DNA of 64,000 nt, taken from NCBI GenBank assembly GCA_964385615.1, contig CAYLPP010000011.1, positions 19,508 to 83,507 of the forward strand. The letters run 5' to 3'. A program made the translations under genes and the position numbers. Position 1 is the first letter of the stretch. Every line of letters begins with the position of its first letter. Origin of the DNA: an uncultured bacterium (lineage in GTDB: Bacteria > Omnitrophota > Omnitrophia > Omnitrophales > Aquincolibacteriaceae). A model generated the notes under the pieces. That model saw nothing but the letters and a program-made list of their open reading frames with translations, searched no databases and was not told the origin of the DNA. Positions 29,235-63,550 of this stretch are shown here, piece by piece.

Positions 29235-29395
29235 ATAGCCAGTACCCAGAAATTTTTCCTGCGAGGAATAAACCTTGATCAGATCGCCGGTTTTATAGTC
29301 GTCATCAATCCGGTCGATGGCGCCTGAAAAAACCCAGGGGTGGAAACCTTCAAGCGGTTTTTCTTTCTCAGGCTTGAGGTAACAGCGGATGGTCT

Positions 29396-30457: not shown

Positions 30458-31816
30458 TTAGATTTTCTGCCTTATTTCTTTGATCGTGTTTTCGATCAAA
30501 TTACGGATTTCCGTCAGGCGTTTCTCACTGGTGGCTTCAAACCGGGTGACAAGCACAGGCTGTGTGTTGGAAGCGCGGACCAATCCCCAGCCGTCCGGGA
30601 ACTCAACGCGGGCGCCGTCAATATCCACCACTTTGTACTGAGCCTTCAGCGTCTGCACGGCTTTTTTAATCACGTCAAACTTCACTTCATCCGGACACTC
30701 AATGCGGATTTCAGCCGTAGCGTAAGTGTTGGGAACATCCTTCAGAAGTTCCGGGATGGTTTTATTTTCACGGTCCAGAATCTCAAGCATCCGGCAGGCC
30801 GAATAAATCCCGCTGTCAAAACCAAACCAGCGGTGTTTAAAAAAGATATGCCCGCTCATTTCGCCCGCCAGCAAAGCGCCTTCTTCTTTCATCTTGGCTT
30901 TGATCAGCGAGTGACCTGTCTTCCACATAATTCCTTTTCCGCCGTGCTTTTCAATATCCTGAAAAAGAAGGTTGGAGCATTTCACGTCGGCCAGAATCGT
31001 CGCACCCGGATTTTCTTTGAGAATCGGGCGGGAATAAAGAATCATCATTTTATCGCCGGGAATAATATTGCCCAGATGGTCAATCACGCCGCAGCGGTCG
31101 CCGTCACCGTCAAACGCAAGACCGATGTCGGCTTTATTTTTCTTCACAGCTTCAATACAGTCGTGCAGATTTTCAGGCTCGCTGGGATCCGCGGGGTGAT
31201 TCGGGAAACGTCCGTCCGGTTCGGTGTAAAGCTTAATGACCTCATGCCCAAATTTCTCGAAAAGCTTCGGAGCGATCAAGCCGGTCATCCCGTTACCGCA
31301 GTCCACCACAATCTTGAGCTTACGTTTGAACTGAAATCCTTTAAACAGGTACTCAAAATAATCAGGAACAATCTCACGGGTGGTGAGTTTTCCTTCACCC
31401 TTGAGAAAATCCTGCTTCTGAATCATGGAAAGGAGTGTTTGAATCTGCGGGCCATGAAGGCTGGAAGTCCCGATATTCATTTTCAGACCGTTCTGATCGG
31501 GCGGATTGTGCGAACCGGTGATCATGATACCGCCGTCCGTGGCGAAATAATGCACGGCGAAATAAAGACACGGCGTGGTGGTCAAACCCAGGTCAGTCAC
31601 ATGGAGGCCGGTGGAAAGAATGCCCTTGATCAGCGCGTCATGAATGCGGGGCGAACTGACACGGCAGTCACGGCCGATCACAATATGATATTTCTTATCA
31701 CGCTTAAGGAAAGTTCCGTAAGCCTTCCCGATATTTTCGACCACTTCGCTGGTCAAATCACGTTCAGCTACGCCGCGGATGTCATACTCACGAAAAATTG
31801 AAATCGGAAGGTTCAT
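30458..31816 (-). CDS. manB: Phosphomannomutase / phosphoglucomutase
   Basis: 452 aa with phosphoserine loop TGSHNPP, Mg loop FDGDGDR and a sugar-binding loop. Directly abuts manC. Confidence 0.8.
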   Translation of the reverse strand: MNLPISIFREYDIRGVAERDLTSEVVENIGKAYGTFLKRDKKYHIVIGRDCRVSSPRIHDALIKGILSTGLHVTDLGLTTTPCLYFAVHYFATDGGIMITGSHNPPDQNGLKMNIGTSSLHGPQIQTLLSMIQKQDFLKGEGKLTTREIVPDYFEYLFKGFQFKRKLKIVVDCGNGMTGLIAPKLFEKFGHEVIKLYTEPDGRFPNHPADPSEPENLHDCIEAVKKNKADIGLAFDGDGDRCGVIDHLGNIIPGDKMMILYSRPILKENPGATILADVKCSNLLFQDIEKHGGKGIMWKTGHSLIKAKMKEEGALLAGEMSGHIFFKHRWFGFDSGIYSACRMLEILDRENKTIPELLKDVPNTYATAEIRIECPDEVKFDVIKKAVQTLKAQYKVVDIDGARVEFPDGWGLVRASNTQPVLVTRFEATSEKRLTEIRNLIENTIKEIRQKI

Positions 31817-31963
31817 GTGAATTTGGTCTCTTAATTTTAATTAGAAAAATTAGGAAAGAGGACTTGGCTCTTTCGAGAAGATCCTCAAATTCCTTTATTT
31901 TGAAATGCGTTCATCGGACGCGGCATTCCTTAAGCCGCGCCGATGACGTACCAATCACAGGAT

Positions 31964-32048
31964 TGGTGCGAGCGAGAGGACTTGAACCTCCAACCCTTGC
32001 GGGACATGATCCTTAGTCATGCGCGTATGCCAATTCCGCCACGCTCGC
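31964..32048 (-). tRNA. tRNA-Leu (class II, long variable arm); anticodon reads AAG by my manual fold
   Basis: Reverse complement GCGAGCGTGGCGGAATTGGCATACGCGCATGACTAAGGATCATGTCCCGCAAGGGTTGGAGGTTCAAGTCCTCTCGCTCGCACCA. 7-bp acceptor stem, D-loop with GG, anticodon stem CATGA/TCATG with loop CTAAGGA, variable-arm hairpin CCCGCAAGGG, T-loop TTCAAGT, encoded CCA. Confidence 0.75.
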
Positions 32049-32061
32049 GTAAAAATTAAAA

Positions 32062-32415
32062 CTATTTTCCGGACTTAAGCCGCTGCTTCTCTTTTTCAAG
32101 AGCAACTTCGACTTGCGCCAGCTCCACATCCAACTTTTGAGTTTCCTCGATCAACGTCTTGATCTCAGCGTCATTCACGGAGATTTCCTCACCCTTCCGC
32201 TGGGCTTTTTCATAAATCTTACTGCCAAGCTGGGCGAATTTCTTACTCACGCGGTGCTCCAGGCCGGCCTTTTCAATCAAAAGCTTGGTTACCAGGGCCG
32301 CTTCTCCCGCTTTTTCGGAAACAGTCTTGACGGACTGCTTCGCGGTTTCAAAAGCACTGTTAATGGCTTTTTCCGCTTTTTCGTACAACGAATCATTTTC
32401 CATATTATTTTCCAT
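32062..32415 (-). CDS. Hypothetical coiled-coil protein (phasin-like composition)
   Basis: 117 aa, Lys/Glu/Ala-rich amphipathic helices. No catalytic motif. Confidence 0.35.
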   Translation of the reverse strand: MENNMENDSLYEKAEKAINSAFETAKQSVKTVSEKAGEAALVTKLLIEKAGLEHRVSKKFAQLGSKIYEKAQRKGEEISVNDAEIKTLIEETQKLDVELAQVEVALEKEKQRLKSGK

Positions 32416-33430
32416 TCACCACGTTTTCCGGATTTCCTTCCAGAAAACGCCGTATGTTACCCACCGTTGTATCAAGGATGCGTGTCACCGCTTCCTTTGA
32501 ATAAAATGCCATGTGAGGCGTGTAAATAACGTTCCCGCGGCTTAACAAGTCCTGATTTTTCTTCATCAGGTCTTTTTTTTCCGCGTCCTGAGTGTTTAAA
32601 AACCGTTTCTCCTCGAGAATCAGCTCTTCACCTTCGAGCACATCCAGCCCCGCTCCGGAGAAAATACCTTCGTTCAGACCTTTAAGCAGGGCTTCGGTTT
32701 CAACCAGACCGCCCCGCGCGGTATTCACCAGGACTGAACCGCGCTTTATTTTAGACAGGTTAGCCTGATTAATCAAATGATGAGTTGCCTTCATATACGG
32801 GACATGAAGTGAAAGAATATCCGCTTTGCCCAGCAATTCATCGAAGGGCGCGTATTTGAACCCCATGACTTCCGCGAGAAAGTGATTGGGCTTTACATCA
32901 AAGGCAAGCACTTCCATACCGAATCCCCGTGCCATGCGGATAACGTGAAGACCGATATGACCCGTTCCAATCACGCCGATTGTTTTGCCGTAAAGGTCAA
33001 AACCCATCAGGCCGGTCAGAGAAAAGTCATTATCACGGATTTTGTAATACGCTTTGCGCAGACTGCGCGAAAGCGAAAGGATCAGCGCGAAGGTGTGTTC
33101 GGCCACAGTGTTTTCACCGTAGACAGGCACATTGGAAACCTTGATGCCCTTGTCCGCGGCCGCTTTAGGATCAATATGATCAAACCCGGTGGACCGGGTC
33201 GCGATGAGTTTCAAATCCGGAAATAAGGCTATCTCTTTGGCGCCGATCCGTGAATTCACAAAAGGCGAAAGCACGGTGACTCCGGGATATTTTTTTTTCA
33301 AATCCTGCACATTCTCATTTTCAAAGATCAAGCTGGCGCCTTGAAACCGCGAGGCAAGGTAATCCGCCTGCCATTTTTCCTGCATTTCCGCAAACAGAAT
33401 CCTGTCGGAAGTAAGAAGCGCCTCATTCAT
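32405..33430 (-). CDS. D-isomer-specific 2-hydroxyacid dehydrogenase (NAD-binding)
   Basis: 341 aa. GVIGTGHIGLHV Rossmann motif and a catalytic His/Glu/Arg arrangement typical of D-2-HDH (LVNTARGGLV). Confidence 0.75.
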   Translation of the reverse strand: MNEALLTSDRILFAEMQEKWQADYLASRFQGASLIFENENVQDLKKKYPGVTVLSPFVNSRIGAKEIALFPDLKLIATRSTGFDHIDPKAAADKGIKVSNVPVYGENTVAEHTFALILSLSRSLRKAYYKIRDNDFSLTGLMGFDLYGKTIGVIGTGHIGLHVIRMARGFGMEVLAFDVKPNHFLAEVMGFKYAPFDELLGKADILSLHVPYMKATHHLINQANLSKIKRGSVLVNTARGGLVETEALLKGLNEGIFSGAGLDVLEGEELILEEKRFLNTQDAEKKDLMKKNQDLLSRGNVIYTPHMAFYSKEAVTRILDTTVGNIRRFLEGNPENVVNGK

Positions 33431-33481: not shown

Positions 33482-36400
33482 TTAGGCCGAAGCGGCGGTC
33501 CGCAGGGCCTGCATCCGGTAACGGCTGAGCTCTTGAATCGCCGCGGCCATCGCTGAGAGGGCTTCAGCGCTTTTAACGCGCTCACGGTCTTCACGGCCGT
33601 CCACTTGCGCCAGAAAATCCACGGTTTTCTTGGAAAGAGCCACAAGCCCGGCCGTTAAAACCCTGGCCGGAAGATTCTCGCCGTCCTTCGCGCCATAATC
33701 CAGTTCCTGCCCGTCGCCATAGCGGTCGGAAAGCAGCATCCGGATATTTTCAGGCACGGAGCCGATGACCAGGTCAGGCGATTGATCCAGACGGCCTTGC
33801 ATTGACTGATGATAAAAACTGACACTGCCTCCCGCCTTCTCAATTTCCAGAATGTCACGCTTGTTATGGTCAGCAACTTTGAGCAGATCGCGGACACGCT
33901 GAGGCACCTTCACTTGAATCACAATATTTTTATTTATTGAAACCGCGTCATGCGCGGCCTGGAGAAGTGCGCGGAGCGCTTCTTCCGCTTTCCCGCCCAA
34001 CTGAGCCAGATCCTGCTCGGAAATTTGATACCTCACATAAACCGGCTTATCGACCGCCCGAATAGCCTCCGCGTATTCCATCCCGGCTTTTAAAATCTCC
34101 GCGTCTTCTTTGAGCGCTTCCGACTCAACCGCGGCTTGCACTTCCGGAATAAACGCGTCAAGATTTCCGGCGGCAGCCCGGACAATTCCTGGAATATCCA
34201 GACTCCCCGGACTGTTCGTCCGGAACGCGTTTACGAGATTTTCAGCCGCCAGCCTCAATTCAGAGCGGGGAGTATCCGCTTTTGAAGACTGGGGTCTTAT
34301 CTCAACCTGAATAATACGCGCCTTGTCTTCTTTTAAATCTTTTTCCGTGTCCGCGTAAACAAGCCAGACGCGTGAAACTTCACTTAAAGGAAACTGTTTT
34401 AGGTCATGCCAGTTTATATCCGTGGATTTCCGGTATTTCCGCATAACAGCTTCCGGAATTTCCAAAAGCACCCCCAGTGTTTTTGAAAGGTAATTTTCAC
34501 CGTAGGGCGAATCGGTATACGTATGAAGATGCGCTTCGCTCAAATCCGCGGTCCACCGTGTTGGGGCGCGGCCAATGTTCTTAACTTTTCCGGAATTGAT
34601 CCAATCTTCAAGTACTTCTTTACCGTAAACTCCCCGGTAATAAAACCCGGTCCGGAAATCTTCAGGGAAGGCTTCGCTAAATTTACGTACAGGAGCCTGC
34701 CGGGCAATCCGGAGCGCGCCGGAGTAGGAACGAATGCCCGGTAAACGCACTTCAGAACGGGCAGGCTTGTCGGTTTTGGGGTTGGGGCCGGTTTTTTTCC
34801 TGGGAATGAATTTCTTAAAGCGTTTGTCCAGCGCCTCAAACGCAACACGGCTTTTTTGAATACTTTGAATGCTGGATTGCGGATGCGCCGCGAAAGCTTC
34901 ATGAACCGGCCCGGCAGCCTGTCTTTTTTTATTGGCCCGCAAAAATACGCGGGCCTGCGCAAGATAATCCCGGATGAAAAATTTATCCTGAGAACCCAAG
35001 GTCGAATCGTTTAAAAGCTGTTCGGCTGCATCAATCTCGTTTAGAAGCTGCTGTTTTTCCGAAATTTTCTTCGCTCTGACTTCTGAGCGGGAAGCCGGTT
35101 GATAGTTATCTAAATTAACCTCGATCATCCGGATCTTCTGCGCGGAATGCCGGAGAAGCGCGTTTTCCAGCTCCTCAGGGCTTGAGATCGTATAAATCGC
35201 GGTGGGTTCATAGACAGGGCCTTCGTCTGACGGATAAAACGCTATTCTGGTAACTGCCCGCGGATTCTCCTGAAGCATTCGTCTTTGGAAATTCTGAGCG
35301 CCGATGTCCTTGTGAATTCCCCCCAAACTCGAGGACCCGATAACCAGGTACTGAACTTTAAGCTTGAGGCGGGTAAAAAGCTCATCCCTGAGAATGGAGC
35401 CGTATTTTTTTCGGCGCAAATCTTCTCCAGCTCCCGCGTCAAAAACATAGATTCCATTTCCAAAAGCGCGGTTCGACCCACTGTTAACCTGATAAGCATA
35501 CGCTGCCAAAGGAAATCCGCGAAAACGCTGTTCATCAGTCACCTCAAAACCTTCCGGAAAATCTTTACGAAAAAGAATGAGCGCGTCTTCTTTTTTTCCG
35601 TTCCACCGGGTGTAGAGTTCATCACTCCACATACGGCGGAGCAGCCAATCCACAGGGCCGCGAATCTCATCCGGCCCCAATTCGGAGAACAAACGGAAAG
35701 AGACATTCTCAACGCGCGCCTCGGAACGCCCCCAGACGGGCACCGCCTTCTTTAAAGCATGAAGAGCGTCATTCGCATCCCGGGTTCCGTCAAAAAAATC
35801 ATTTACAAGATTCATATGGGGCTTAAAAGCCTTCATCAAATGAAGCAAGTTCACTTGCCGGCGAATCGGCTCAAGACCGTTTGTGTATTCCTGAAACAAA
35901 CGCAAGCGGTCCGGGTCAAAACCGCCCTGCCGCAGGAACTCGGGATTACCGCTGGTATGAAACCGATAAACCGCATCGCGGCCCGCCTGAGCGCCGATTT
36001 TCGAGAAAATCTCGTTAATGAAAAACTGGTTTTTGAACGGAAGCAAAACGCCAAAATGCCGCCGGATGAAGTCGGTAGCCAGATATTCCGTGGTTCCTTC
36101 CCTCAATATCCAGAGAAGTCCATTCTGCGTAATTTCACCCAAAGCTTCCGCGAACCCATCGGCCTGTTCAATATGATAACGCTCATGCGCGTAGGTTCTC
36201 GCCATATTCAGCGTTTCAAAGTCTTCACGAATCCACAGATGCACAAATGTCAGAATCTCTCCCTCGGGCAGCTTGATTTGCTGCATGAAACCAAAAGGTG
36301 TTTCAGACAACTCCAACGCTTTCAAGATAGGATCGATCCAGTAACCCGTCGCAGAAACAGGCAGAACGCTCAGGTTCTCAGGGTCGCGGTCCCCCGGCAT

Positions 36401-39400
36401 TCTGAAATAAAAAGTCCTGTCCGGCACAGCCAGCTCGCCGGCAGCATCGATTTTGGCGATCGCTTCACGAAGATTCGCATCAGGCTCAGCCGCGAAAAGT
36501 TTGTTTTCTTCTTCGACAAACCTGATTAAATCTTCTTTCGTCTTCACCTGCTTCATTTTTTCAAACCGCCCGCGCCAGTAAGCAAAAAGCTCGTTTTTAT
36601 CCGCTGTCCCGTAAATTCTTCTGAGTTCCGCAGCGCGTTCGGGGCTTTCTTCGGAGAATGTCTGATTCCAGAGTTTCTCCAGACCTGTGATATTTTTTTC
36701 CGCCTTAGCAATCATATCAACCCAGGGTTTGACTAACAAGTCACGCACTTCAGAGCGGGGCGTCGTAAAAAACGATTCTTGATCCATCCGGCTTACCGCC
36801 CAGTCCGGTACATCCGCTAAATCATAAAACCCGTAGAGAGTCCCTTGCTTGTAAAAAAAATATTGCTCCTCTTGAGGACGGCCCGTAAGCCAGGTCCGGA
36901 ATTCCGGAGTCACGGTCACTGCTTGCAGGGCACCCCGGAGAATATCAAACCCATCTATGTATTCTCCAATATTCCATCCGGCAATTTCGTCGATATCTTC
37001 GGCGCTCTTAATTTCCTCAGGAAGTTTTCCGGAATAAGCTTTTAGAGTTTGAGCAAGTATTGAAAACTCTTCCCTGAGCCGGGCTTCTTTTTCCCTATTC
37101 TTGTATGGATTATTTCCCCACTTTTCCCGGCCCGGAATCACGTATCCCTTTTTGTGGTATTTCGCGGACGCGAGTTCCGGTTTAGTCCCGTCGCCGGAAG
37201 GGTAAATAACGCCTTCCATCCATTGCCGTTCCAGCCTGAGGCTGGGGGTACCAGGAGGTCTTGTCATTGAAAACGGGAAATGCATGGCGGGAAAACTGCT
37301 GTAAAGGATGCCGTTATCATCCAGGGCTTTGAGAAAAGTATCCATCAAAAATCCTCGACTGGATTCTTCAAGGTACTGAAAAACCTGCCGGAAGAAAATG
37401 AAGTCCGGGTGAAGCTTTTCCAACCCAAGAGCCTGCACGCTTTCGCGCTGATTAAAATTGAGAACTGCCAGCTGAAAGAGAGCGTGTTTTTCCGGCTTCA
37501 GGCGGTAACCACGGGGCGTTTTGTCGAAATATTTCGCGGTCGGAATTCCGGAAAGACGGGCTTCCCGAATATCCTGAGGATCATAATAAATCTCATTGGC
37601 CATGAATTTTTCCATCAAAGAAGCTTGCCCTCCAAGCCCAGCGACCAAAACTTTCGCTTCAATTCCCTTGAACCGTTCAAGAGCGGAAAGCACTTCAATG
37701 GGTTCCTGAAAAAACCCGGGACCGCCGACAAAAGCGCGGAAAGCCTGACGCTCTTTTCTTTTTCCGGGCGCGCGGAGTCTGGTTTCACGGCGAAAATCTC
37801 CCAGATAGTCGGGTTCACGCAGAGCTTCAGAACCTGAATACCGCCCGAAGCGTCCCATAGACTGCCATGCGGGTACCAACAGCCGAAGAAAACGCTCCGT
37901 GGGAGAATTCTCCTGCCCGAAATTTTTAAGCTGGGCCGGCCAAAGAGACGGCGTATCCCCAAGTATTTCAGTAATTTCATCCCAGTAAGTGCGCACGAAA
38001 TTCTTCAGCGTAATGGTTTCCACTTCATTCTGATTACTTGAAAAAATCCGGTTTTGACGGACGTAAGTTTCGGGAAGTTTTTTAATAAATGTCAGGATCA
38101 CGGCCGCCGCCTTGTTAACCTCGAGGTCAAAATGGGCCGGCACGGCGCGGACTTCAGAACGCGCGCTCTCTTGTTTCGCTTTGTAAAGAATCGACGTGAG
38201 CTTCGCAACCAGCAGATCACGCTTCTGGGGCACCACCCTTTTACCCTTCTTCAGCAAGTCCGCGGCACCCGCCTTGATCTGTCCTTGATCCAGCGGAAGA
38301 GCGGCGATTTTCAAAAGTTTTTCACTGATTGTGGACCAATCAATAAGATCATCCTCTTGGTCGGAAATCCCCCGGCTGATAAGCCCGCGCATTTTTTTGG
38401 CCAGCTCCCGGGCCGCCTCCGCTTGAGGGCTGAAAGACTTCAGGTCTACGGCTTGCGGCGATTGAGGCTTCTGCTTTGCAATCAACGATTCAAGATCCGC
38501 CAGGTATCCCGCGAACATTTCTTCGAGAAAATCCCGCGCCCCCGCCCGGCGATGCGCTAATTCCGGATCCGTTTGAACCATTTTAAGATTTTCCTGCAGA
38601 ATGGTTTTCAAGTTCCGGAGATCGTTTTCCGGAACACGAAGACGCAGGATCTCGCTCAGGGAAAGGTTATTGAGTTCATAAACCCATCTCAATAAGCCGG
38701 CTTCTTTATCAGAAATCGCCGGGAAGAGAGATTCGGGCACCGCCTCCGATTCGGACTGCGTTTCTCCCCCAAGAACCACGCCGTAAGCGATCGGAGCACC
38801 TTTCGAGTCATAAAAAACGGTCACTTCGGCGGCCAAACCGTGACGCCGGAAAAAAGCTTTAACCTCATCGGCCGTCGTGAACAGCCCGGCAAGAAATTTT
38901 TCCAGATTGTAGATATCGAGATAAATTCGAAGCGTATCCCCGTAAATGGCGCCGATTGCCTGCCCAGCCGCCGGAGTCTGAAGAAGCGCGATCATTCTTT
39001 CAACATGTTCAATATACTTCTCCTGCCCCCCTAGGGCATAAGGGTCGCGTGGAAGAGCAGCCATTTTCCGCCGAACTCCCGCAAGCCCCTGGAAACTACC
39101 CGCGTGGACCATGGAAATCAGCTCGTGATAAATATCCAGCATCCGGTAATCCAGCATCAGGGCGGAGCGGTCATTGACCGTAACCTGGGATTGCGGGTGA
39201 TGCAGCTGAAGCACCGCTTTACCTGATTTCATGATCCGTTTTAGTTCTTCAACGGAACGCTCCTTATCGGTATAGTCCAGCGCGTACATGGAGATCACCG
39301 CATCCATGGAATGGTCCGCGAAACCGGTATTTTCGGCGGACGCCTGTTTAAAGGTGATCCCCTGGACCGGCTCTTTGGGAACCACCGGGTCCAGCGCGGT

Positions 39401-42400
39401 TAAATCCAAATCCCTGCGGCGCTCGGCAAGTTTGCGGGTTACATACAAATCCCCGGCACCCAAATCCAGAACCTTCGGTTTCTCCCCCGCCCTGGCGGGA
39501 AGCAGGCGATCCAGCCGCTGATAAAGAAATTCAAGGAGTGCCGTCGGGTAATGATTTCCCCAGGAACCCTGACGCTCCGTTTGCGAAGCATCAAGAGTTT
39601 CCCAATGCATTTTCCAGTATTGCACGGACAATTCGTCATTGCTCATTCCCGGGCCCTGAATATTCGGGGCTATAACGCGCATGAAACTCGCCGCGTCAAG
39701 GCCTCTTGCCAATGGCCGCGCGGTATTAATATCCGTTCTTCCGTTTTGAGCGGCAACTTCACGCGAAACCCACGAGTTCTTGAGCTGGCGCAAAAGCAGA
39801 GCGGTCCGGGGATCCGGAACCTCATTATCACGAACGGGTTCAAGCCGGTTAACCAGCCGATAGAAACCAGCCAGGGCTGTTGAATCCGGAAAAACTCCGT
39901 TTTGCTCCATCCAGCTTTTAATTTCCACGGTGCCGATCGACTTTGGGAAAGTGACCGCCCTCAGCTCGGAACGCCCCCTGGCGGAGAGAGCCTCTCGAAT
40001 GCCTTCGTCAATTTCATTCGTATCGTAAGGAAGCTCCGTGTCTTCACGGCGGATCAGAGACAGCACGACTTCTTTAAGGAAGGCGGGGTCATACCCCTTG
40101 AATCCCGGTTCATTAATTTTCTTCACACCCTCCCGGTTAACCAAAATAAGCTGGCCGAACTCAACGCTGAAAGCTTCCGGGTTCAATCCTTCTGTGGACC
40201 CCGCGGCCAAGCCATAAAGGGTAAATCCTTTATCCTGAAAATCTAAAATAAGATTCGTTAATTCCCCGGCTGTTTTTTTAAGTTTTCCGGGCTCCACATT
40301 CTTAAAAAGATGCTCCTTCAATGAGTTCCCATAAGAAAAAAGCCGGTGATTGTCACTGGTTCCTTTGTTGACCATAGGATTAAAAATATCATTTTGATAC
40401 GAAACCCAACGGTCAGAACCGTCTTTAAAAACTACGTAATACTTGTAACCGCCATCCACGGCTTTAACCGGAATCGATGCCCGCCAAACTCCATCTTCAA
40501 AAGTCATCGGGAAACCGGGAGACGCCCACCCATTGAAATCGCCCCGGACATAGACCGCGGAAATTTCTTCATTTTGAATTGGAGGCCGCGGCTCGAAAAT
40601 AAAAGCGCTGGCCGGTTTGTAAGGCGGCTTAGGCACTTTGGAAATAAAAGTCAAAAAGTAAGGGGTGTCTTCCCTGACGGCTTTCAGAATCTCCGGGAGG
40701 CGGTCCCATTCAGCAGGCAGACTGCCGTCTGAAACATTCACATTATCATTAATTAAAACCTGCGCGCCATTCGCGGGGTTCAGAAAGAAACGAAGCATTT
40801 CTTCGGTATCGCCGGAAGCCAGCAGGCTTTGGATTTGCGCCCGCTTTTCAACGGGAAACTGCTCCATCGGAACAGTCCAGAAAATAAAAAAACTCTGAGG
40901 CGTCAAGACCGCCTGAGTTGCCGGATCAAAAATGCGGTAAAGCCCCGCTAACGAGAAAATAAATTGGTGCCCCAGGGATGAAACGCCAACCTGGGTCGTC
41001 ACTGTGAGCTGGCGCCCGTCCTTTTCAGGAAGATTTCTTTGTTTAAGCGGTTGATAAGCCACCGTTGGAGGCCAGACACCCGGCTCATTTTTCGAAAGAG
41101 GAAACCCCATACTGTTAACAGTAAAATCTTTCTTGCGGTAGCTCTCAATCCTGTAACCCGACCTGACAGCCTTCGAAGCCGGATGAATATCCTCCGGCCA
41201 TATCGGAATCTGTTCAGGCGCGTAAGTTCGGTAATAGCCTGAGGCATCTACGATTGTTCCCTTTTCCGTTCTGGCTACGGCGTGCTGGAGTTCCATTTCA
41301 TAATCCACCGGACTTGGACTCCGGGGCAAACCGCGCAAACGGTCTTCCAGAGTTTCCCAGCTTGAAACATCTAAAAGATCGCCGGTCTCAACCGGACGAA
41401 AAGAAAACCGGTTAGGAATTTTAATGCGGTGGACGGAAGCCTTAATCCCGTGCGCGTTTAAAACCCGCGCGGACACGCATGATCCGACCGTACACTCGCC
41501 CCATTCGGCTTCCTCGCCAGGAACTCCCTGGATAGTCAGCTCATATTCATCCTCAATATCCAAGCCGAAAATATCTCTAGCCGGACTCCATGCGTAAGTA
41601 CCCGTTTCGATCAGATGGTAAAGTCCGTAGGTTTTGATTTGAGCGCTCATAAGCGGGTAGAGTTCAAGAGCCCTGCGGAGATCTTCTTCCTTTTCAACGG
41701 GTGAGGTTTCGGCCCTAACCTCAGACCGCGCTTCAGGAACAGACGCGATACGCTCCAATAAAAGTTCCATCCGGCCTACTTGATCTGCGGTCGGATTGCT
41801 TTTCTTCAAATACTCCGTGACCTGCTGTTTAAAACGCCGTTTCACCCAGACAACGAAAGTCCATTCGGTTGAAACACCGCTCGACCGGGATTTCACTTTT
41901 ACGGGACTACGGTCAAATAAATGCCCGGAGGCCCGCAGTGCTTCTAGCGAGGAAACAGCTTCTGCCGCGGATTGCCCGAATACCTCAACAGGCGGCACGA
42001 AAATTGAAAACTCTCCGCCAAGAAGGGAGTTCCAAAGCGCCATTCTCCGTAGAATTTCCTTGATATTTCCTTCAAGCGTTTCGGGGTCAGCGGGAGTTTC
42101 ATCTTCCGTGAGTTCCGTTTCTGAGCGGAGTTCAGAACGCCCGTGGGTTTCGAAATTTCCCGAAGTTTCCGGGGAGCGATATTGAAAAGTTTCGAAAATG
42201 GTCACCAGGAGAACAACTGTTACGGATAATCCCATCAGGCCAAGTCCGCCCCAGATCAAAAGATCACCGGGAGAAACCAGGTAATGGTTTGTCAGAGGAA
42301 TGTAGTCGGCAACGCCGTGAAACAGGAATGCATCAACCACGTTCATCAGCACTCCAGAAAAATAAATCAAGAGACCTGCGGTAAAAATCCGCTGAAAAAT

Positions 42401-44821
42401 TCTTTCGGCTTTCGCGATAAAGGAAAACCGGAATGCCGCCTGCGGTTTGTAATACCAATTGAAAAGAGCCATTTTTAATTTGCGGATAACCGCCGATCCA
42501 ATTCTGAACCCCAGATAAACCGCCAGCCAGCTTCCCGGCCCTGTATATAAAACCCGGCTCAGACGCCCCTGGTCCGCAACGAAATGGAAAATAAAATTCC
42601 GGGGCGTATTCCTGTTTTCCTCTGTTCCCTGAACCAGAATTTTGAGACCGTCAGGATGGTTATGAGCCATCCCCTCATAGGCGCGCTGTGCCTCCGGCAC
42701 TTGTTCAGGAAGATCCACCCCCACCAGCACCCGGCTTATATTGGAAAGAAAGAAATGAATAACAATTTGATTGAGCAGAATTAAAACAAAAACGGCGCTG
42801 AGATAAAGAGCGGCAAGTTTCAGACCTTTCCAAGCTCTTGCCCGAAAATTTTCCGGAGATTCCGGCAATAACTTAACCTTCTTGACGGCTTCTTCTCTAT
42901 CGGAACCGGCAGCGCGGACTTCGGAACGCGCTCTGCGCGCGGGCACTTCTTGATTCATCCAGGCCGAAAGCTGAAGCACGGCGGGACCGCCCGTTTCCGT
43001 CACAATGTTGACGGGTTTTAAAAGGGCCGCAATGTTTGATTCCGTGAGTTTTCCGGAAGACTCAAGTCCCCGCAGGCCTTCCAGAAACCGGCTGATTTTT
43101 TCCTGCCAGGGATACCTGGAAATTTTCTTTTCTTCCGGCTTCAGAACTTCGTCTAGAAACCGGGTATAACTCCACGCTTCCGAAACTCTTTCTTGAGCGA
43201 TCAGATCACGGATCAGCTGATCGCGCCATTCTTTCAGATCCCCCGACTCGAGAAGCCGGTCACGGACAGAACGGATGAACGCGGGATAAAGAAAAATACG
43301 CCCATTTTCCGGATGAAAGTAATTTTTCCAGGAAACCTCACGGTTCATCTGCGCGAGATAGGCTGCCTGACCGGATAAGTCATGGATTTCAGGAGTGACG
43401 AGCAGGTAGGAAATGCCGGCCTGGCGGAAAAGACGCATTAATTCCTGAGAGTGAAAACCTCCGGCAATCATCATAATTTCCGGATGCTGATCCGTCATGA
43501 GCCGTTGAATCTTCTCAAAAAAGACGCCGTCTCTTTTTTCCGCATTCCGGTAAAATTCGGAAAAGACACGAAGGCTTCCTGCAAGAGCAGGTAGATTCCG
43601 GGCTTTAAGCTGGATCCATTCATCCCGGCTCAACTCCAGCTTGGCCAGTTTTTCGCAGAGGCGTAAACCCCGGCTTTTGCGGTCCGCTTCTTTTTCTTCC
43701 GGAGTTTTTAAAAGCCGCCTTTTAACGGTGTTTGAATAAATTTTAAACTCTCTGAAAAAATCCGTTCCTTCAATCGCCTGAATTTTTCGGTGGTTGCGCA
43801 AGGATTCCCGCAATTCCGGAGAAAACCGGGCATGATAAGTTTCCAGAAAAACCGCGAATTCGACTGCTGAAAGGCGGGAGGTTTGAAAGGCCTGATATTT
43901 GTCATGAAAAACGGCGGGCGCGGGTCCGGATTTCAAAATCCTTTCGGCTTCAGATTTAACTTCAGCCTGAATCTGAACGGAGTCTTTCTCATCACGCCTG
44001 ATTTCTTTCAGAACAGACGCCAGAGCCGAATCCGGACGCGGTTCATTTTCCTGAGCGAGCAGGAGCATCACCCGCGAGAAATCCGTTTCTCCTTTTTCAA
44101 ATTCAGTCAGCGCCCGGTCCACCGCCAGAAGGCGCGGAGAAAAAACGGTTTGTTTCTGTTTATTGAGGCGGGTTTGTAATTTATAAATCCGGGGAAGAAT
44201 TTCCTTCTGCCGTTCAAGCGCCTGCCGGTAAAGATCTAAGCCTTCCTGATACAGGCTCCAGTCCTCCACGCCAATAAATTCACCGGGAGATTTATTTAAG
44301 ATAGCCGCCGCCGCGGCTCCGGACAGCTCCCCTTTTTCAGTGTAACTTTCAAGCGCCTTCTCCAACGCACTGTGGTCCGGGAAACTTCTTAGAATTCCCG
44401 CGTCCAGTTTTTCGGAAGCCCCTTCCACCGCCGTTGTCCGGATTTGGTATTCGGTCTGAAAGTAATCGATTATTTTTTGGATATTGCGCTGACCATCCGC
44501 GATCGCGTGAGCGTCCTGAACTAAAACAACCGCCCGCCCGTTTTTTTCACCTCGGAAAAATTCCTGAATCTTCCCGGTTTCATTGGGTAATTCAATTTCA
44601 GAAAGGGTTTTAAAAAGATTTTTCTTCGCGGGTAAAAAATTTTTCTCTTCCGCACACACCCGGGGCGGAACTGGCGGAGTCAAAATAAAAACGACCGCAA
44701 GAAAAGCGGAAATCAGTTTAAAGTAAAACTTGAGGTATCTGCTTGTCATGTAATTGGTTAGACCACAAGAATACCCTATAGCCATCCTGGAGGCAAAAGG
44801 TTGCTTATAGTGATATAGCAA
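33482..44821 (-). CDS. Giant (~3,750 aa) multidomain membrane-anchored protein of unknown function: signal peptide, helical N-terminal region, 4-TM bundle, CBM48/E-set-like module, embedded class-I SAM methyltransferase domain, HExxH motif, ten RSE[VLA]R motifs
   Basis: Uninterrupted 11,340-nt ORF on the minus strand; only short ORFs on the opposite strand. The more likely start is MTSRYLKFYFKLISAFLAVVFIL (ATG at 44749), giving a signal peptide with a VCA|EE cleavage-like site. Internal motifs read directly: VLDLGAGD...DAVISMYALDY (MTase motifs I and post-I), YVRGDFNGWASPGF...YKYYVVFKDG (CBM48-like), AHERYH. Codon usage and GC match the flanking genes. Confidence 0.85.
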   Translation of the reverse strand: MLYHYKQPFASRMAIGYSCGLTNYMTSRYLKFYFKLISAFLAVVFILTPPVPPRVCAEEKNFLPAKKNLFKTLSEIELPNETGKIQEFFRGEKNGRAVVLVQDAHAIADGQRNIQKIIDYFQTEYQIRTTAVEGASEKLDAGILRSFPDHSALEKALESYTEKGELSGAAAAAILNKSPGEFIGVEDWSLYQEGLDLYRQALERQKEILPRIYKLQTRLNKQKQTVFSPRLLAVDRALTEFEKGETDFSRVMLLLAQENEPRPDSALASVLKEIRRDEKDSVQIQAEVKSEAERILKSGPAPAVFHDKYQAFQTSRLSAVEFAVFLETYHARFSPELRESLRNHRKIQAIEGTDFFREFKIYSNTVKRRLLKTPEEKEADRKSRGLRLCEKLAKLELSRDEWIQLKARNLPALAGSLRVFSEFYRNAEKRDGVFFEKIQRLMTDQHPEIMMIAGGFHSQELMRLFRQAGISYLLVTPEIHDLSGQAAYLAQMNREVSWKNYFHPENGRIFLYPAFIRSVRDRLLESGDLKEWRDQLIRDLIAQERVSEAWSYTRFLDEVLKPEEKKISRYPWQEKISRFLEGLRGLESSGKLTESNIAALLKPVNIVTETGGPAVLQLSAWMNQEVPARRARSEVRAAGSDREEAVKKVKLLPESPENFRARAWKGLKLAALYLSAVFVLILLNQIVIHFFLSNISRVLVGVDLPEQVPEAQRAYEGMAHNHPDGLKILVQGTEENRNTPRNFIFHFVADQGRLSRVLYTGPGSWLAVYLGFRIGSAVIRKLKMALFNWYYKPQAAFRFSFIAKAERIFQRIFTAGLLIYFSGVLMNVVDAFLFHGVADYIPLTNHYLVSPGDLLIWGGLGLMGLSVTVVLLVTIFETFQYRSPETSGNFETHGRSELRSETELTEDETPADPETLEGNIKEILRRMALWNSLLGGEFSIFVPPVEVFGQSAAEAVSSLEALRASGHLFDRSPVKVKSRSSGVSTEWTFVVWVKRRFKQQVTEYLKKSNPTADQVGRMELLLERIASVPEARSEVRAETSPVEKEEDLRRALELYPLMSAQIKTYGLYHLIETGTYAWSPARDIFGLDIEDEYELTIQGVPGEEAEWGECTVGSCVSARVLNAHGIKASVHRIKIPNRFSFRPVETGDLLDVSSWETLEDRLRGLPRSPSPVDYEMELQHAVARTEKGTIVDASGYYRTYAPEQIPIWPEDIHPASKAVRSGYRIESYRKKDFTVNSMGFPLSKNEPGVWPPTVAYQPLKQRNLPEKDGRQLTVTTQVGVSSLGHQFIFSLAGLYRIFDPATQAVLTPQSFFIFWTVPMEQFPVEKRAQIQSLLASGDTEEMLRFFLNPANGAQVLINDNVNVSDGSLPAEWDRLPEILKAVREDTPYFLTFISKVPKPPYKPASAFIFEPRPPIQNEEISAVYVRGDFNGWASPGFPMTFEDGVWRASIPVKAVDGGYKYYVVFKDGSDRWVSYQNDIFNPMVNKGTSDNHRLFSYGNSLKEHLFKNVEPGKLKKTAGELTNLILDFQDKGFTLYGLAAGSTEGLNPEAFSVEFGQLILVNREGVKKINEPGFKGYDPAFLKEVVLSLIRREDTELPYDTNEIDEGIREALSARGRSELRAVTFPKSIGTVEIKSWMEQNGVFPDSTALAGFYRLVNRLEPVRDNEVPDPRTALLLRQLKNSWVSREVAAQNGRTDINTARPLARGLDAASFMRVIAPNIQGPGMSNDELSVQYWKMHWETLDASQTERQGSWGNHYPTALLEFLYQRLDRLLPARAGEKPKVLDLGAGDLYVTRKLAERRRDLDLTALDPVVPKEPVQGITFKQASAENTGFADHSMDAVISMYALDYTDKERSVEELKRIMKSGKAVLQLHHPQSQVTVNDRSALMLDYRMLDIYHELISMVHAGSFQGLAGVRRKMAALPRDPYALGGQEKYIEHVERMIALLQTPAAGQAIGAIYGDTLRIYLDIYNLEKFLAGLFTTADEVKAFFRRHGLAAEVTVFYDSKGAPIAYGVVLGGETQSESEAVPESLFPAISDKEAGLLRWVYELNNLSLSEILRLRVPENDLRNLKTILQENLKMVQTDPELAHRRAGARDFLEEMFAGYLADLESLIAKQKPQSPQAVDLKSFSPQAEAARELAKKMRGLISRGISDQEDDLIDWSTISEKLLKIAALPLDQGQIKAGAADLLKKGKRVVPQKRDLLVAKLTSILYKAKQESARSEVRAVPAHFDLEVNKAAAVILTFIKKLPETYVRQNRIFSSNQNEVETITLKNFVRTYWDEITEILGDTPSLWPAQLKNFGQENSPTERFLRLLVPAWQSMGRFGRYSGSEALREPDYLGDFRRETRLRAPGKRKERQAFRAFVGGPGFFQEPIEVLSALERFKGIEAKVLVAGLGGQASLMEKFMANEIYYDPQDIREARLSGIPTAKYFDKTPRGYRLKPEKHALFQLAVLNFNQRESVQALGLEKLHPDFIFFRQVFQYLEESSRGFLMDTFLKALDDNGILYSSFPAMHFPFSMTRPPGTPSLRLERQWMEGVIYPSGDGTKPELASAKYHKKGYVIPGREKWGNNPYKNREKEARLREEFSILAQTLKAYSGKLPEEIKSAEDIDEIAGWNIGEYIDGFDILRGALQAVTVTPEFRTWLTGRPQEEQYFFYKQGTLYGFYDLADVPDWAVSRMDQESFFTTPRSEVRDLLVKPWVDMIAKAEKNITGLEKLWNQTFSEESPERAAELRRIYGTADKNELFAYWRGRFEKMKQVKTKEDLIRFVEEENKLFAAEPDANLREAIAKIDAAGELAVPDRTFYFRMPGDRDPENLSVLPVSATGYWIDPILKALELSETPFGFMQQIKLPEGEILTFVHLWIREDFETLNMARTYAHERYHIEQADGFAEALGEITQNGLLWILREGTTEYLATDFIRRHFGVLLPFKNQFFINEIFSKIGAQAGRDAVYRFHTSGNPEFLRQGGFDPDRLRLFQEYTNGLEPIRRQVNLLHLMKAFKPHMNLVNDFFDGTRDANDALHALKKAVPVWGRSEARVENVSFRLFSELGPDEIRGPVDWLLRRMWSDELYTRWNGKKEDALILFRKDFPEGFEVTDEQRFRGFPLAAYAYQVNSGSNRAFGNGIYVFDAGAGEDLRRKKYGSILRDELFTRLKLKVQYLVIGSSSLGGIHKDIGAQNFQRRMLQENPRAVTRIAFYPSDEGPVYEPTAIYTISSPEELENALLRHSAQKIRMIEVNLDNYQPASRSEVRAKKISEKQQLLNEIDAAEQLLNDSTLGSQDKFFIRDYLAQARVFLRANKKRQAAGPVHEAFAAHPQSSIQSIQKSRVAFEALDKRFKKFIPRKKTGPNPKTDKPARSEVRLPGIRSYSGALRIARQAPVRKFSEAFPEDFRTGFYYRGVYGKEVLEDWINSGKVKNIGRAPTRWTADLSEAHLHTYTDSPYGENYLSKTLGVLLEIPEAVMRKYRKSTDINWHDLKQFPLSEVSRVWLVYADTEKDLKEDKARIIQVEIRPQSSKADTPRSELRLAAENLVNAFRTNSPGSLDIPGIVRAAAGNLDAFIPEVQAAVESEALKEDAEILKAGMEYAEAIRAVDKPVYVRYQISEQDLAQLGGKAEEALRALLQAAHDAVSINKNIVIQVKVPQRVRDLLKVADHNKRDILEIEKAGGSVSFYHQSMQGRLDQSPDLVIGSVPENIRMLLSDRYGDGQELDYGAKDGENLPARVLTAGLVALSKKTVDFLAQVDGREDRERVKSAEALSAMAAAIQELSRYRMQALRTAASA

Positions 44822-44844: not shown

Positions 44845-45780
44845 TTAAATCCCGGAAACAGTCAGAATTTCGAGGACCTGCTTAATTCCTGCGGTTAAAT
44901 CCCCTTGGTAGGAAAACCCTTCCTTTTCAAGCCTCAAGGGAGAAACCCCGTAAGAAAAATCATTCATGGCGGGAGAATCCACTTCCTGAATTTCAAGTGA
45001 AGTGACATTTTTTTTGAGAGCGCTTAAAATCTGCCGTACTGTTGCATTCAAAGTCACCGCGTTGTAAACCTGTCCGTCAAAAAGCCTCTTCGCCGTCAAA
45101 AATAAAATCACTTCAACCGCGTCGGTCAAATCCAGATAAGCGCGGGTTTGATCCAGCGCGGTCCGCCAAACCGTCACAGGCTTATGCTCCGCCGCTTGTT
45201 TGCAGAATTTATTAACCGCGGTATTAAAACGCATTCCGGGCGAAGGGCCGAAAACCGTCCCAAAACGGGCGATTGAAAACCGGAGTTTTTTAAAAATTTC
45301 AGAGCGAAGCAGGTTTTCCGCTTTAAGTTTGGAGTCCGCGTACGGACTCTGAGGAATGAGTTCCTCCGGGGGACCGTCTTCAAAAGCCGTTCCGTTTTCT
45401 TTTCCGTAAACGCTCGTGGTGGACGGAAAAAAAAGCGCGGCGCCGGATTCAAGACAGGCTTCAGCAACACGCGCAGTTCCCAAAATATTAACACGCTCCG
45501 TTTCTTCCGGATTTTTAAAGCTTTCGGCGGGGTCGCTGAGCGCGGCCAGATGAATCACAGTGTCTGCCCCTTTAAAAAAAGGCCCCAGATCCAAATCCAG
45601 AATATCGCCTTCCGTGAAAAAATACCGGCCTTCCTTCGGCAGATTTTCCAAAGAGGCGCGATGCCCGGAGGGATCACGGTCAATCATCACAATTTCACAG
45701 CCGGGAAACCGGGCTGGAATTTCACGGATCAGCCTGGAACCGATATACCCCAGAGCCCCCGTCACAACGATCTTTTTCAT
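44845..45780 (-). CDS. NAD-dependent epimerase/dehydratase (extended SDR, UDP-sugar 4-epimerase-like)
   Basis: 311 aa. N-terminal VVTGALGYIGSRL glycine-rich NAD motif, YxxxK region. Confidence 0.75.
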   Translation of the reverse strand: MKKIVVTGALGYIGSRLIREIPARFPGCEIVMIDRDPSGHRASLENLPKEGRYFFTEGDILDLDLGPFFKGADTVIHLAALSDPAESFKNPEETERVNILGTARVAEACLESGAALFFPSTTSVYGKENGTAFEDGPPEELIPQSPYADSKLKAENLLRSEIFKKLRFSIARFGTVFGPSPGMRFNTAVNKFCKQAAEHKPVTVWRTALDQTRAYLDLTDAVEVILFLTAKRLFDGQVYNAVTLNATVRQILSALKKNVTSLEIQEVDSPAMNDFSYGVSPLRLEKEGFSYQGDLTAGIKQVLEILTVSGI

Positions 45781-46754
45781 TTCTTAGCCCCGGCTCCGCT
45801 CACAGGTAAATCCATTACATAAAGGGTTTTTCGAAGACCAGATTCCAGATCATACTCCGGCTTCCAGCCCGTCAAACCGCGAAGTTTCTCAGATGTAAAC
45901 ACGGCGTCTTCCACTTCAATTTTTCGCCTCTGATCGGGCCACTGGGTGAATTCCACCCGCCCTTTTCCAATAACACGGACTACCGTCTGTGCGATTTCGC
46001 GGACTGAAAAATGCCAGGGGCCGGTGGCCAGAAACACGCCTCCGCGTAACGCTTCGTGCCCGGCTGAGCGCAAAAGAATCTCCGCGGCATCTTCAGCGTA
46101 GAGGACATTACGAAGTTGGTTCCCCGTCCCAAAAATCTTTAGAGGCTGATCTTGAACCGCTAAACCAATGAAGTAATTGATAAAACCAAAATCGGGGCTC
46201 GTTTTTCCGTAGGGTCCGTACAAATTCGCGAAACGCAGAGTGACCGTATCCAGCCCATACAGACTGGAATAAATCCGGTAATATTTTTCCGCCGCGCCTT
46301 TGTTAGCCGAATAAATGCCCGCGGGTTTTTCCGGATGCTCTTCATCCGCTTCTCCAAACACTTTTCCGGCAGCGGTCGTCGTTGAAGCATAAACCACGGA
46401 CGCGCGCGGATTAAAAAGACGCACCGCTTCGAGCAGTTTCAAACTGCCGAGAACATTGATCTCAGCGCAGTGAAGCGGATCTTGAATCGACAGCGTGTGC
46501 GAAGACTGAGCCGCGAGATTAAAAATCACGTCATGCCCTGGAACCATTTCCGCGAGCAGTTTTTCATCACGGATATCTCCCCTTACAAAACGGATCGCGT
46601 CACTGACTTCCTCAAGGGATTGCATTGAAGACATAAAACGGGGATCGAGAGAATCCAGAACGGTCACTTCCACCCCCGGCTCAGCAAGACAGCGGCGGAC
46701 CAGATGCGCACCCAGGAAACCGGCTCCTCCTAAAATCAAAACTTTGGATGCCAT
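45777..46754 (-). CDS. NAD-dependent epimerase/dehydratase (NDP-sugar 4,6-dehydratase/decarboxylase-like)
   Basis: 325 aa with LILGGAGFLGAHLV motif and a YSANKGAAE catalytic YxxxK. 4-nt overlap with the downstream gene. Confidence 0.75.
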   Translation of the reverse strand: MASKVLILGGAGFLGAHLVRRCLAEPGVEVTVLDSLDPRFMSSMQSLEEVSDAIRFVRGDIRDEKLLAEMVPGHDVIFNLAAQSSHTLSIQDPLHCAEINVLGSLKLLEAVRLFNPRASVVYASTTTAAGKVFGEADEEHPEKPAGIYSANKGAAEKYYRIYSSLYGLDTVTLRFANLYGPYGKTSPDFGFINYFIGLAVQDQPLKIFGTGNQLRNVLYAEDAAEILLRSAGHEALRGGVFLATGPWHFSVREIAQTVVRVIGKGRVEFTQWPDQRRKIEVEDAVFTSEKLRGLTGWKPEYDLESGLRKTLYVMDLPVSGAGAKK

Positions 46755-46756
46755 AT

Positions 46757-48993: not shown

Positions 48994-49726
48994 ACCGGAT
49001 TAAAAGACTGGGGCGGTTAGCATAAATCGAAACGCTTTGATCGATTATTTCCGCGTTGAGGTCCATTTTCTGTATCCATGCCTGAATCTGCTCGCGCGTA
49101 AATAAATGGGCTTTGAACTTTTTTGAAGAATTCCGGTAGCCATCGGCCCCAAAAAGCAGGCTCCAGGCGGTCTGAATGAATACCGTGAAATACTTTTCTT
49201 TTACGGCAAACGCGATGGAATCCATGACATCACGAAAAAATCCGGCTGCATTTCTTTTCATCGGCAAATCCGCAATCAGCATCCGGGCTCCGGGCAAAGC
49301 GGACTGGCGGGCAGAACGGATTAAAGCCTCCACATCTTCCAGCGTTTCATAATATTGAACCACGCTGACGCAAAGAAACACTGAGAAGCGCCCTAAACCG
49401 CTGAGGTCTGTGTAATTCCGGCTTAAAAGCGAAGTCCGGACGTTCGTCAAGGCTGAACACCTTGAAGCGCAAAGAGAAACCAGGTTTTCCGAAGTATCCG
49501 CGGCACAGATTCCTGAAACAAGGGGGGCAAGCAACTGCTCCAAATGACCGGGACCGCAGCCGATGTTCAGGACAGAATCGGTTTTTAAAAATCTAACGAC
49601 GGGTTCCGCTCGGCGTAAAAAAATCTCCGCGTTTTTCTCCCAGATTTTATTCCCGGTCCAGAAACGGTCGCGATTCCAATAATCGATCCAGGAATTGCGG
49701 GAGGTATCCGGCGAAGCTCCCGTCAT
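48986..49726 (-). CDS. Class I SAM-dependent methyltransferase
   Basis: 246 aa; motif I VLNIGCGPGHL. Overlaps the neighbouring genes at both ends (operon). Confidence 0.55.
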   Translation of the reverse strand: MTGASPDTSRNSWIDYWNRDRFWTGNKIWEKNAEIFLRRAEPVVRFLKTDSVLNIGCGPGHLEQLLAPLVSGICAADTSENLVSLCASRCSALTNVRTSLLSRNYTDLSGLGRFSVFLCVSVVQYYETLEDVEALIRSARQSALPGARMLIADLPMKRNAAGFFRDVMDSIAFAVKEKYFTVFIQTAWSLLFGADGYRNSSKKFKAHLFTREQIQAWIQKMDLNAEIIDQSVSIYANRPSLLIRFD

Positions 49727-51468: not shown

Positions 51469-51513
51469 TCCTTCATTAAATACTTTTCGCAATGATAAAG
51501 GGCATGAATAAAC

Positions 51514-60517: not shown

Positions 60518-60522
60518 CTTTT

Positions 60523-63532: not shown

Positions 63533-63550
63533 GATAATCTCCTTATCGTT

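Follow-up and report, generated by a model that had tools for sequence, protein, structure and literature searches.

A recurrent RSE-phi-R pentapeptide as a probable module delimiter and candidate cleavage signal in giant Omnitrophota proteins

The window examined here, a stretch of 64,000 nucleotides from an uncultured bacterium of the Omnitrophota (contig CAYLPP010000011.1, positions 19,508 to 83,507), encodes on its minus strand a giant protein in which the pentapeptide RSE[V/L/A]R recurs ten times. We found this protein to belong to a family whose members carry a recurrent motif with the consensus [R>K]-[S>A>P>T]-E-[L/V/A/M]-R, hereafter RSE-phi-R, with small residues favoured on both sides. 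The motif is almost certainly a selected delimiter between the modules of these proteins, and the chances are about even that it acts as a site-specific protease cleavage signal in a polyprotein. All coordinates below are those of the window.

Results

Ten sites in one open reading frame

The giant open reading frame (ORF; 33482..44821, minus strand) comprises 3779 codons from a TTG, and in public annotation the identical protein (P0015) has 3767 amino acids (aa) and starts from the ATG at 44785. RSE.R was observed exactly ten times in the giant ORF, where 0.11 occurrences are expected from its own composition, and all ten sites are RSE[V/L/A]R. The tenfold recurrence far above chance that had been described in an earlier note on this DNA was thus confirmed, and each of the plus-strand intervals listed there holds one of the ten sites. 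The protein contains eleven RSE tripeptides, ten of which are followed by x-R, and each of the ten pentapeptides is preceded by A, G, P or S.

42914-42928, minus strand: motif 1, A-RSEVR-A, aa 632-636, after the N-terminal domain in a linker with a predicted local distance difference test score (pLDDT) below 50
42125-42139, minus strand: motif 2, G-RSELR-S, aa 895-899
41714-41728, minus strand: motif 3, A-RSEVR-A, aa 1032-1036, which opens module 4 (aa 1032-1616)
39959-39973, minus strand: motif 4, G-RSELR-A, aa 1617-1621
38147-38161, minus strand: motif 5, A-RSEVR-A, aa 2221-2225, which opens module 6 (aa 2221-2688)
36743-36757, minus strand: motif 6, P-RSEVR-D, aa 2689-2693
35714-35728, minus strand: motif 7, G-RSEAR-V, aa 3032-3036
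35075-35089, minus strand: motif 8, S-RSEVR-A, aa 3245-3249
34745-34759, minus strand: motif 9, A-RSEVR-L, aa 3355-3359
34253-34267, minus strand: motif 10, P-RSELR-L, aa 3519-3523, immediately before the conserved C-terminal module

The codons were found to vary between the ten copies, with a mean pairwise third-position identity of 0.38 against 0.31 in the flanks, which upholds the proposal of the earlier note that the peptide rather than a DNA repeat is under selection. The only DNA repeats at the sites are stretches of 18-29 nt that are accounted for by the common peptide; together with the codon variation, this rules out a DNA repeat as the origin of the motif. In a six-frame scan of the window, the remaining RSE.R matches were all off-frame or interrupted by stops, and RSE-x-R was absent from the 39 other non-overlapping ORFs (14,167 aa).

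Specificity of the motif for one protein family

Relatives found with aa 1-1031 come from metagenome-assembled genomes (MAGs) of Candidatus Omnitrophica and carry RSE[V/L/M]R directly after the conserved N-terminal domain. A phmmer search of the full library with this domain as the query (aa 60-625) gave 7070 cluster representatives at E<=1e-3, of which 644 reached E<=1e-30. Among the best 150 relatives from this search, protein lengths run from 0.5 to 8 thousand amino acids (kaa), and the domain is always located at about aa 45-620. The set of relatives used below consists of 153 proteins that share a signal peptide and the N-terminal domain of about 560 aa, and 122 of them are complete.

All pentamers outside the N-terminal domain were counted in 147 relatives (390,617 aa), and the commonest were RSELR (242), RSEVR (117), RSEAR (110) and RSEMR (105). 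RSE[VLMI]R was observed 497 times where 2.4 occurrences are expected, while permuted controls gave 1-3. At least one motif is present in 120 of the 122 complete relatives. The other two, P0013 (1331 aa) and P0103 (2224 aa), have the N-terminal domain and the [AS]A end without an RSE-x-R-like motif past aa 560; they may stand for an ancestral form or one that is not processed, or their signal may be a different one.

A scan with one genome per species returned 80 loci, the named sources of which are Omnitrophota throughout except for one contig labelled Planctomycetales. Several MAGs hold 4-5 paralogs of the family genes. The family or giant ORFs of these loci contain 235 motifs in 234,337 aa, and none was found in 332 ordinary neighbour ORFs (118,883 aa). 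The earlier note had named a similar density in unrelated proteins as the result that would refute its proposal; we looked for it and found no motif in the neighbour ORFs or elsewhere in the window. A compositional artefact is therefore excluded by the observed excess among the relatives and the absence of motifs from the neighbours.

At four loci (L059 3-9536, L044 1-3960, L055 3-4709 and L024 3-2921), the ORFs directly upstream of the family gene were noticed to be 3' parts of family genes, with up to 12 motifs and an [AS]A end, and family genes therefore form tandem arrays. Word-indexed homolog searches with aa 2689-3779 and with module 4 gave no match, though the 42%-identical homolog of module 4 in P0016 exists.

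Anatomy of the motif

A logo was built from 860 family sites. The information is confined to five residues; A/S/P/G are weakly favoured ahead of the motif and A/S/T behind it, where an acidic stretch follows. The five positions are as follows.

Position 1: R, with K in 6%
Position 2: S, then A (about 15%), then P, then T
Position 3: E, with D in 2%
Position 4: L > V > A > M > T > I; aromatic and charged residues, G and P never occur
Position 5: R only, with K in 0.3%

Serine is thus replaced by alanine or proline at about 20% of the sites. The spacer is short, as the hydrophobicity dip around the motif extends from -5 to +9 only. When pairs of paralogs were aligned across the motif, the identity at R, S, E and R was 0.47-0.58, while that of the motif flanks was about 0.20, below the alignment average of 0.37. 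By these alignments, the motif is an island of purifying selection within the least constrained part of the chain. Motif 1, the sole site covered by a confident structural model, is located in a linker or tail with pLDDT<50 of the model of the N-terminal region.

We also noticed a codon bias that affects the first two motif codons only (236 sites, loci L001-L080). The Arg1 codon is CGY at 86% of the sites against a background of 42%, and the Ser codon is TCN at 97% against 67%, whereas the Glu and Arg5 codons match the background usage. The TCN bias is compatible with the alternation of Ser, Ala and Pro at position 2.

Modules bounded by the motif

In the 153 proteins together, aa 1-560 hold only one motif. 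The median position of the first motif is aa 655, typically 30-60 residues past the last helix of the N-terminal domain. The motifs have a median spacing of 334 aa, comparable to the length of a typical bacterial protein, and the number of motifs rises with protein length to as many as 24 per protein. In an all-against-all comparison, a motif or the C-terminus was found no more than 5 aa away from 30% of the starts and 55% of the ends of the high-scoring segment pairs, whereas random positions gave 2%. The view of the earlier note that the sites fall between domain-sized segments is supported by these homology blocks that end at motifs, by the conservation island and by the low-confidence linker around motif 1.

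The eleven between-motif segments of the giant protein show no mutual similarity. Modules 4 and 6 have 42%-identical counterparts in P0016 that are bounded exactly from motif to motif, and there the homolog of module 6 lies upstream of that of module 4, an order swapped relative to the giant protein. Modules are shuffled between paralogs as motif-bounded units. Other relatives agree with this picture; for example, a receiver domain occupies a motif-to-motif unit of 151 aa, and an adenylate kinase domain and a CsrA domain begin 25 and 5 residues after a motif, respectively, the starts of all three domains lying 5-25 aa past a motif.

The modules of 13 relatives are heterogeneous in content, and most are of cytoplasmic type. 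They include HEAT, FHA, methyltransferases, PPDK_N, WD40, CsrA, receiver, adenylate kinase, NUDIX and APH, as well as the C-terminal domain of RNA polymerase alpha; kinases and membrane segments also occur among the family modules. The following features were found in the modules of the giant protein, for which an NCBIfam search gave nothing beyond the methyltransferase matches of Pfam.

42140..42913, minus strand: module 2, aa 637-894, with 3-4 transmembrane-like segments (hydropathy)
39221..39469, minus strand: S-adenosylmethionine (SAM)-dependent methyltransferase (Methyltransf_11, Pfam), aa 1785-1867, in module 5
37301..37741, minus strand: aa 2361-2507, CheR-like methyltransferase match that is weak and fails the Pfam cut-off (E 2.8e-4)
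36173..36187, minus strand: single HExxH (HERYH), aa 2879-2883, in module 7, not conserved in the family

The conserved N-terminal domain

The region contains the following features.

43019..44644, minus strand: conserved N-terminal domain, aa 60-601, with an alpha/beta core of the TIKI/TraB/EreA/ChaN type and a large helical insertion
44507-44515, 44423-44425 and 43451-43453, minus strand: catalytic-type residues D103-x-H105, E133 and H457, respectively
43490-44260: all-helical insertion of about 250 residues in the TIKI-like core, aa ~188-441 (model residues 129-382)

The predicted structure has the parallel beta-sheet core in an alpha/beta arrangement that characterises the TIKI superfamily. 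R430 is an invariant residue of the domain, which is itself an invariant part of the family. D103-x-H105, E133 and H457 do not vary across the aligned relatives (15 of 15 and 13 of 13). These residues correspond to the 2His/2Glu set of the superfamily, with the first acidic residue being Asp and not Glu. The set is catalytic in Bcr135 and RRSP (PMC6254334), and the His-to-Glu spacing of 28 is identical to that of Bcr135 (H85/E113) and RRSP (H3902/E3930). Structure prediction thus points to a divergent TIKI-superfamily hydrolase with an intact predicted active site. PF04187 matches 2 of 15 relatives weakly (best E 2e-4), and a profile of the domain gave no match among the PDB sequences. The helical insertion, which has invariant residues of its own and hid the core in a Foldseek search, may be a substrate-binding cap.

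Protein ends and topology

Both ends of the protein are shared with the relatives.

44648..44749, minus strand: Sec-type signal-peptide-like N-terminus, aa 25-58 (hydropathy), MTSRYLKFYFK / LISAFLAVVFILT / PPVPPRVCA-EE
33485..34252, minus strand: conserved C-terminal module, aa 3524-3779 (homology to relatives), ending ...RTAASA-COOH

The same Sec-signal-like layout of n-region, h-region and small-x-small was found in 115 of 121 relatives with complete N-termini. The C-terminal module is homologous to that of 13 relatives, where it often begins exactly at the last motif, and a motif occurs 180-340 aa before the end in 109 of the 122 complete relatives. This last module has a median length of 286 aa and no invariant polar residue. 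It ends in [A/S]-Ala in 122 of 153 relatives and in ASA in the giant protein (33485-33502). The [Ala/Ser]-Ala-COOH follows an amphipathic helix, and the C-terminal Ala might mark the protein in the manner of a degron, bind a PDZ domain or signal export. In addition, 19 of the 122 relatives that end in [A/S]A have R[S/A]ExR at a distance of 3 or 5 residues from the C-terminus, where about 2 are expected.

The topology presents a paradox. Nearly all members begin with a Sec-type signal peptide, but many of their modules depend on cofactors or partners of the cytoplasm, namely the SAM methyltransferases, adenylate kinase, NUDIX, CsrA and receiver domains. It would make sense if these modules act inside another cell.

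Discussion

Proposed polyprotein processing

The layout of the family may be written as a Sec-type signal peptide, a TIKI-like domain of about 560 aa, a variable linker and n copies of RSE-phi-R plus a module, the last RSE-phi-R being followed by the conserved C-terminal module of about 286 aa that ends in [A/S]-Ala. A polyprotein processing site would be the simplest reading of a family-specific signal that lies between independently evolving units, some of which normally act alone. In this mechanism, a site-specific endopeptidase would recognise the pentapeptide and cut the chain into separate proteins. The scissile bond would follow the second Arg (RSE-phi-R | A/S/T), as suggested by the strict last Arg and the small residue after it; Arg but not Lys with a small next residue is typical of protease sites with Arg at P1 and a small P1'. 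If the cut falls after Arg5, the motif-like sequence close to many natural C-termini would let all products end alike. The proposal of the earlier note that these are protease cleavage or recognition sites in a polyprotein therefore stands as the best available reading, with cleavage itself being what we infer.

The N-terminal TIKI-like domain is the best candidate for the protease because it is the only catalytic domain common to all members and because its superfamily includes endopeptidases. That it is the processing enzyme, in cis or in trans, is a possibility that we put forward tentatively and at low probability. The TIKI superfamily includes sequence-specific endopeptidases, esterases, non-enzymes and a haem-binding protein. 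No conserved protease gene was found near the family genes in the 80 loci. There is a still wider proposal, in which suites of enzymes and regulators of cytoplasmic type would be made as single Sec-exported polyproteins and cut at RSE-phi-R by their own N-terminal TIKI-fold protease. The freed proteins would then work beyond the producing cell, for instance as effectors that are delivered to a host or prey. We consider this proposal unlikely as a whole.

Several observations weigh against processing by the N-terminal domain, or against processing at all. The Pfam models of the TIKI type (PF04187, PF01963 etc.) do not match the giant protein at E<=1, and a Foldseek search of the N-terminal domain against the PDB, which was dominated by the helical insertion, returned nothing significant. 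A TIKI-type fold is no proof of peptidase activity, as esterases and non-enzymes share it. The catalytic residues are intact in the motif-free P0013 and P0103, and the activity of the domain is therefore not strictly tied to the motif. The transmembrane-like segments of module 2 may place the nine downstream motifs across a membrane from the N-terminal domain. The spacer of about 15 residues around the motif would suit a docking motif equally well, and the AlphaFold2 model of aa 3340-3779, which covers motifs 9 and 10 and the C-terminal module, is unusable with a pLDDT of 46. The case for cleavage is drawn from sequence and predicted structure.

Alternative explanations

RSE-phi-R could instead remain uncleaved as a docking motif that recruits one common partner to every junction or binds the N- or C-terminal domain. 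Chaperones, factors for export or translocation, scaffolds and envelope components are conceivable partners, and no proteolysis would be involved. We regard this as rather unlikely, although the boundary position, the conservation island, the stringent residues and the short spacer would fit any sequence-specific protein-peptide recognition, and cleavage at the motif-like sequence 3 or 5 residues from the C-terminus (19 of 122 relatives) would free only a tiny peptide. It is hard to explain, however, why a partner would be needed precisely between unrelated modules at the spacing of ordinary proteins (median 334 aa). Heterogeneous modules such as CsrA, adenylate kinase, NUDIX and receiver domains are normally free proteins, and no conserved neighbour gene for a partner was found in the 80 loci. 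A dedicated enzyme that modifies the Ser or an Arg of the motif and so marks the junctions is improbable, whether by phosphorylation, ADP-ribosylation, glycosylation or methylation. Because Ala or Pro takes the place of Ser at about 20% of the sites, Ser is no obligatory acceptor; moreover, modification leaves the confinement to module boundaries unexplained, and no modifying enzyme is shared by all members, which have only the N- and C-terminal domains in common. The stringent context around one Ser and two Arg would suit modification, as would the methyltransferase or kinase-like modules that occur in many members, the giant protein included.

The pentapeptide might also be a by-product of module shuffling at short shared linkers without a function in the protein, which we hold to be quite improbable. 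Modules are indeed swapped as motif-to-motif cassettes with changes in order, several paralogs per genome and tandem family genes are found, and the bias of the first two codons (CGY 86%, TCN 97%) would agree with a scar. On the other hand, 15 nt with variable third positions are too short and too degenerate for homologous recombination, and the Glu and last-Arg codons show background usage. Furthermore, the peptide is kept between paralogs of about 37% identity whose flanks share about 20%, and replacements by Lys and Asp are excluded, from which purifying selection on the amino acids follows. The earlier note had also suggested that its single HExxH motif could belong to the processing protease. 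The motif is indeed present once (HERYH, aa 2879-2883), but processing by a metalloprotease in module 7 is very hard to credit. Pfam and NCBIfam give no peptidase match, and module 7 (aa 2689-3031) is without any Pfam match. Module 7 also has no homolog in the 152 relatives of this motif-using family and hence cannot hold their common processing enzyme, and one bare HExxH in 3779 residues is unsurprising.

Two further candidates were rejected. Self-cleavage by an N-to-O acyl shift at the Ser is not compatible with Ala or Pro at about 20% of the sites or with a motif that lies in linkers and not in a strained fold. Motifs of the Tat, sortase and 14-3-3 types have a differing consensus and occur once per protein.

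Comparison with known systems

By analogy, a polyprotein of this kind would work most like the MARTX toxins and the viral polyproteins, though the protease domain, repeats and secretion type of MARTX were not found. As in MARTX, unrelated effector-like modules are split by linkers and shuffled among relatives. MARTX proteins of Vibrio and its relatives contain a cysteine protease domain (Peptidase C80, activated by inositol hexakisphosphate), whereas Pfam and NCBIfam find none in the giant protein; Peptidase C80 is also absent from the top Pfam families of the 13 relatives. MARTX proteins have RTX or glycine-rich repeats and type I secretion, while the giant protein has no repeat families and carries a Sec-type signal peptide instead. 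No conserved transporter neighbour was found across the 80 family loci. Cleavage of MARTX linkers follows Leu, and no strict pentapeptide is known there; the Omnitrophota family, where cleavage is a prediction, differs in its stringent R-S-E-phi-R delimiter with up to 24 copies per protein.

In viral polyproteins, a short consensus likewise stands at each junction of unrelated protein-sized units (dibasic for flavivirus NS2B-NS3, Q|G for picornavirus 3C), and the Omnitrophota family shows the same short consensus at junctions between protein-sized units. The candidate protease in the same chain and the small residue after the basic one are additional points of likeness. Unlike the viral systems, the family consists of cellular bacterial genes, numbers thousands of members and has several paralogs per genome; its candidate protease is TIKI-like and not chymotrypsin-like, and its cleavage products are putative. 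The N-terminal domain in turn differs from TIKI, TraB, PrgY, erythromycin-esterase and ChaN members by the all-helical insertion of about 250 residues and by the Asp that replaces the first Glu. A further comparison is offered by the demarcation motifs of polymorphic toxins (VENN in CdiA, PxxxxDPxGL in Rhs), which occur once per protein before a single C-terminal toxin. These are similarly short conserved peptides at the border of a conserved region and exchangeable modules, but the Omnitrophota mark is found at each junction, and it delimits modules with no obvious toxin character.

Long 'multi-enzyme' proteins of the same phylum and with similar content have been reported in two preprints (West-Roberts et al. 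2023; 10.64898/2026.06.07.730766). They share methyltransferase, NUDIX, receiver, kinase and HEAT domains with the present family, as well as a signal peptide with or without transmembrane helices. The present proteins belong to class 1 of 10.64898/2026.06.07.730766, with many distinct domain families on one exported-type chain of Omnitrophota origin; at 3.8 kaa, the giant protein lies below the tier of at least 10 kaa emphasised there. Both papers classify by Pfam content and topology and name C39 and S8 peptidase domains as possible processing enzymes. West-Roberts et al. 2023 (10.1101/2023.11.21.568195) suspected cleavage of the giant proteins and stated that the cleavage points were unknown. 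The motif, the TIKI-like domain and the C-terminal module are unmentioned in West-Roberts et al. 2023, Seymour et al. 2023 and 10.64898/2026.06.07.730766. A literature search for the peptide strings gave unrelated matches only, and within the searchable literature the RSE-phi-R delimiter is undescribed.

Genomic surroundings

The giant gene is enclosed by same-strand genes for nucleotide-sugar and polysaccharide metabolism (28221-33430 and 44845-51327). These include a mannose-1-P guanylyltransferase-like nucleoside triphosphate transferase, a phosphomannomutase, a 2-hydroxyacid dehydrogenase and three NAD-dependent epimerases/dehydratases, with a C-methyltransferase, another methyltransferase and an amine-oxidase-like flavoprotein as further neighbours. 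This neighbourhood is not conserved, the best flank cluster being present in only 9 of the 80 family loci. From about 51000 to 64000, the G+C content of the window falls from about 0.50 to about 0.43, and this stretch may be a horizontally acquired island. It contains a YhcG/DUF1016 PDDEXK nuclease (51514-52659), three ORFs without a Pfam match (52722-54419, 54416-55183 and 56805-58175), a fatty-acid desaturase, an HAD phosphatase, an alpha/beta hydrolase and a class-III aminotransferase.

Significance for the Omnitrophota

The Omnitrophota are widespread, ultra-small and probably predatory or parasitic bacteria, and giant or very long proteins are a hallmark of the phylum. Whether these proteins work as one chain or as cut pieces is an explicitly open question, for which the RSE-phi-R sites are the first concrete candidate cut sites, present across hundreds of such proteins. 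The motif provides a rule for parsing the chains for structure and function prediction, together with a candidate enzyme. The question of cutting can now be directly tested with existing proteomic data (PXD025008) and simple biochemistry; a motif-bearing reporter linker is written MBP-[AVPEARSEVRAETSP]-GFP. Even as a docking site, the motif would define the grammar of the family, which consists of a signal peptide, a TIKI-like domain, delimited modules and a C-terminal module that ends in [A/S]-Ala. If cleavage is true, the family would use a bacterial polyprotein strategy with a new sequence-specific protease, possibly a useful tool. If the polyproteins are Sec-exported and self-cut, they would represent a phylum-wide bacterial counterpart of viral polyprotein expression.

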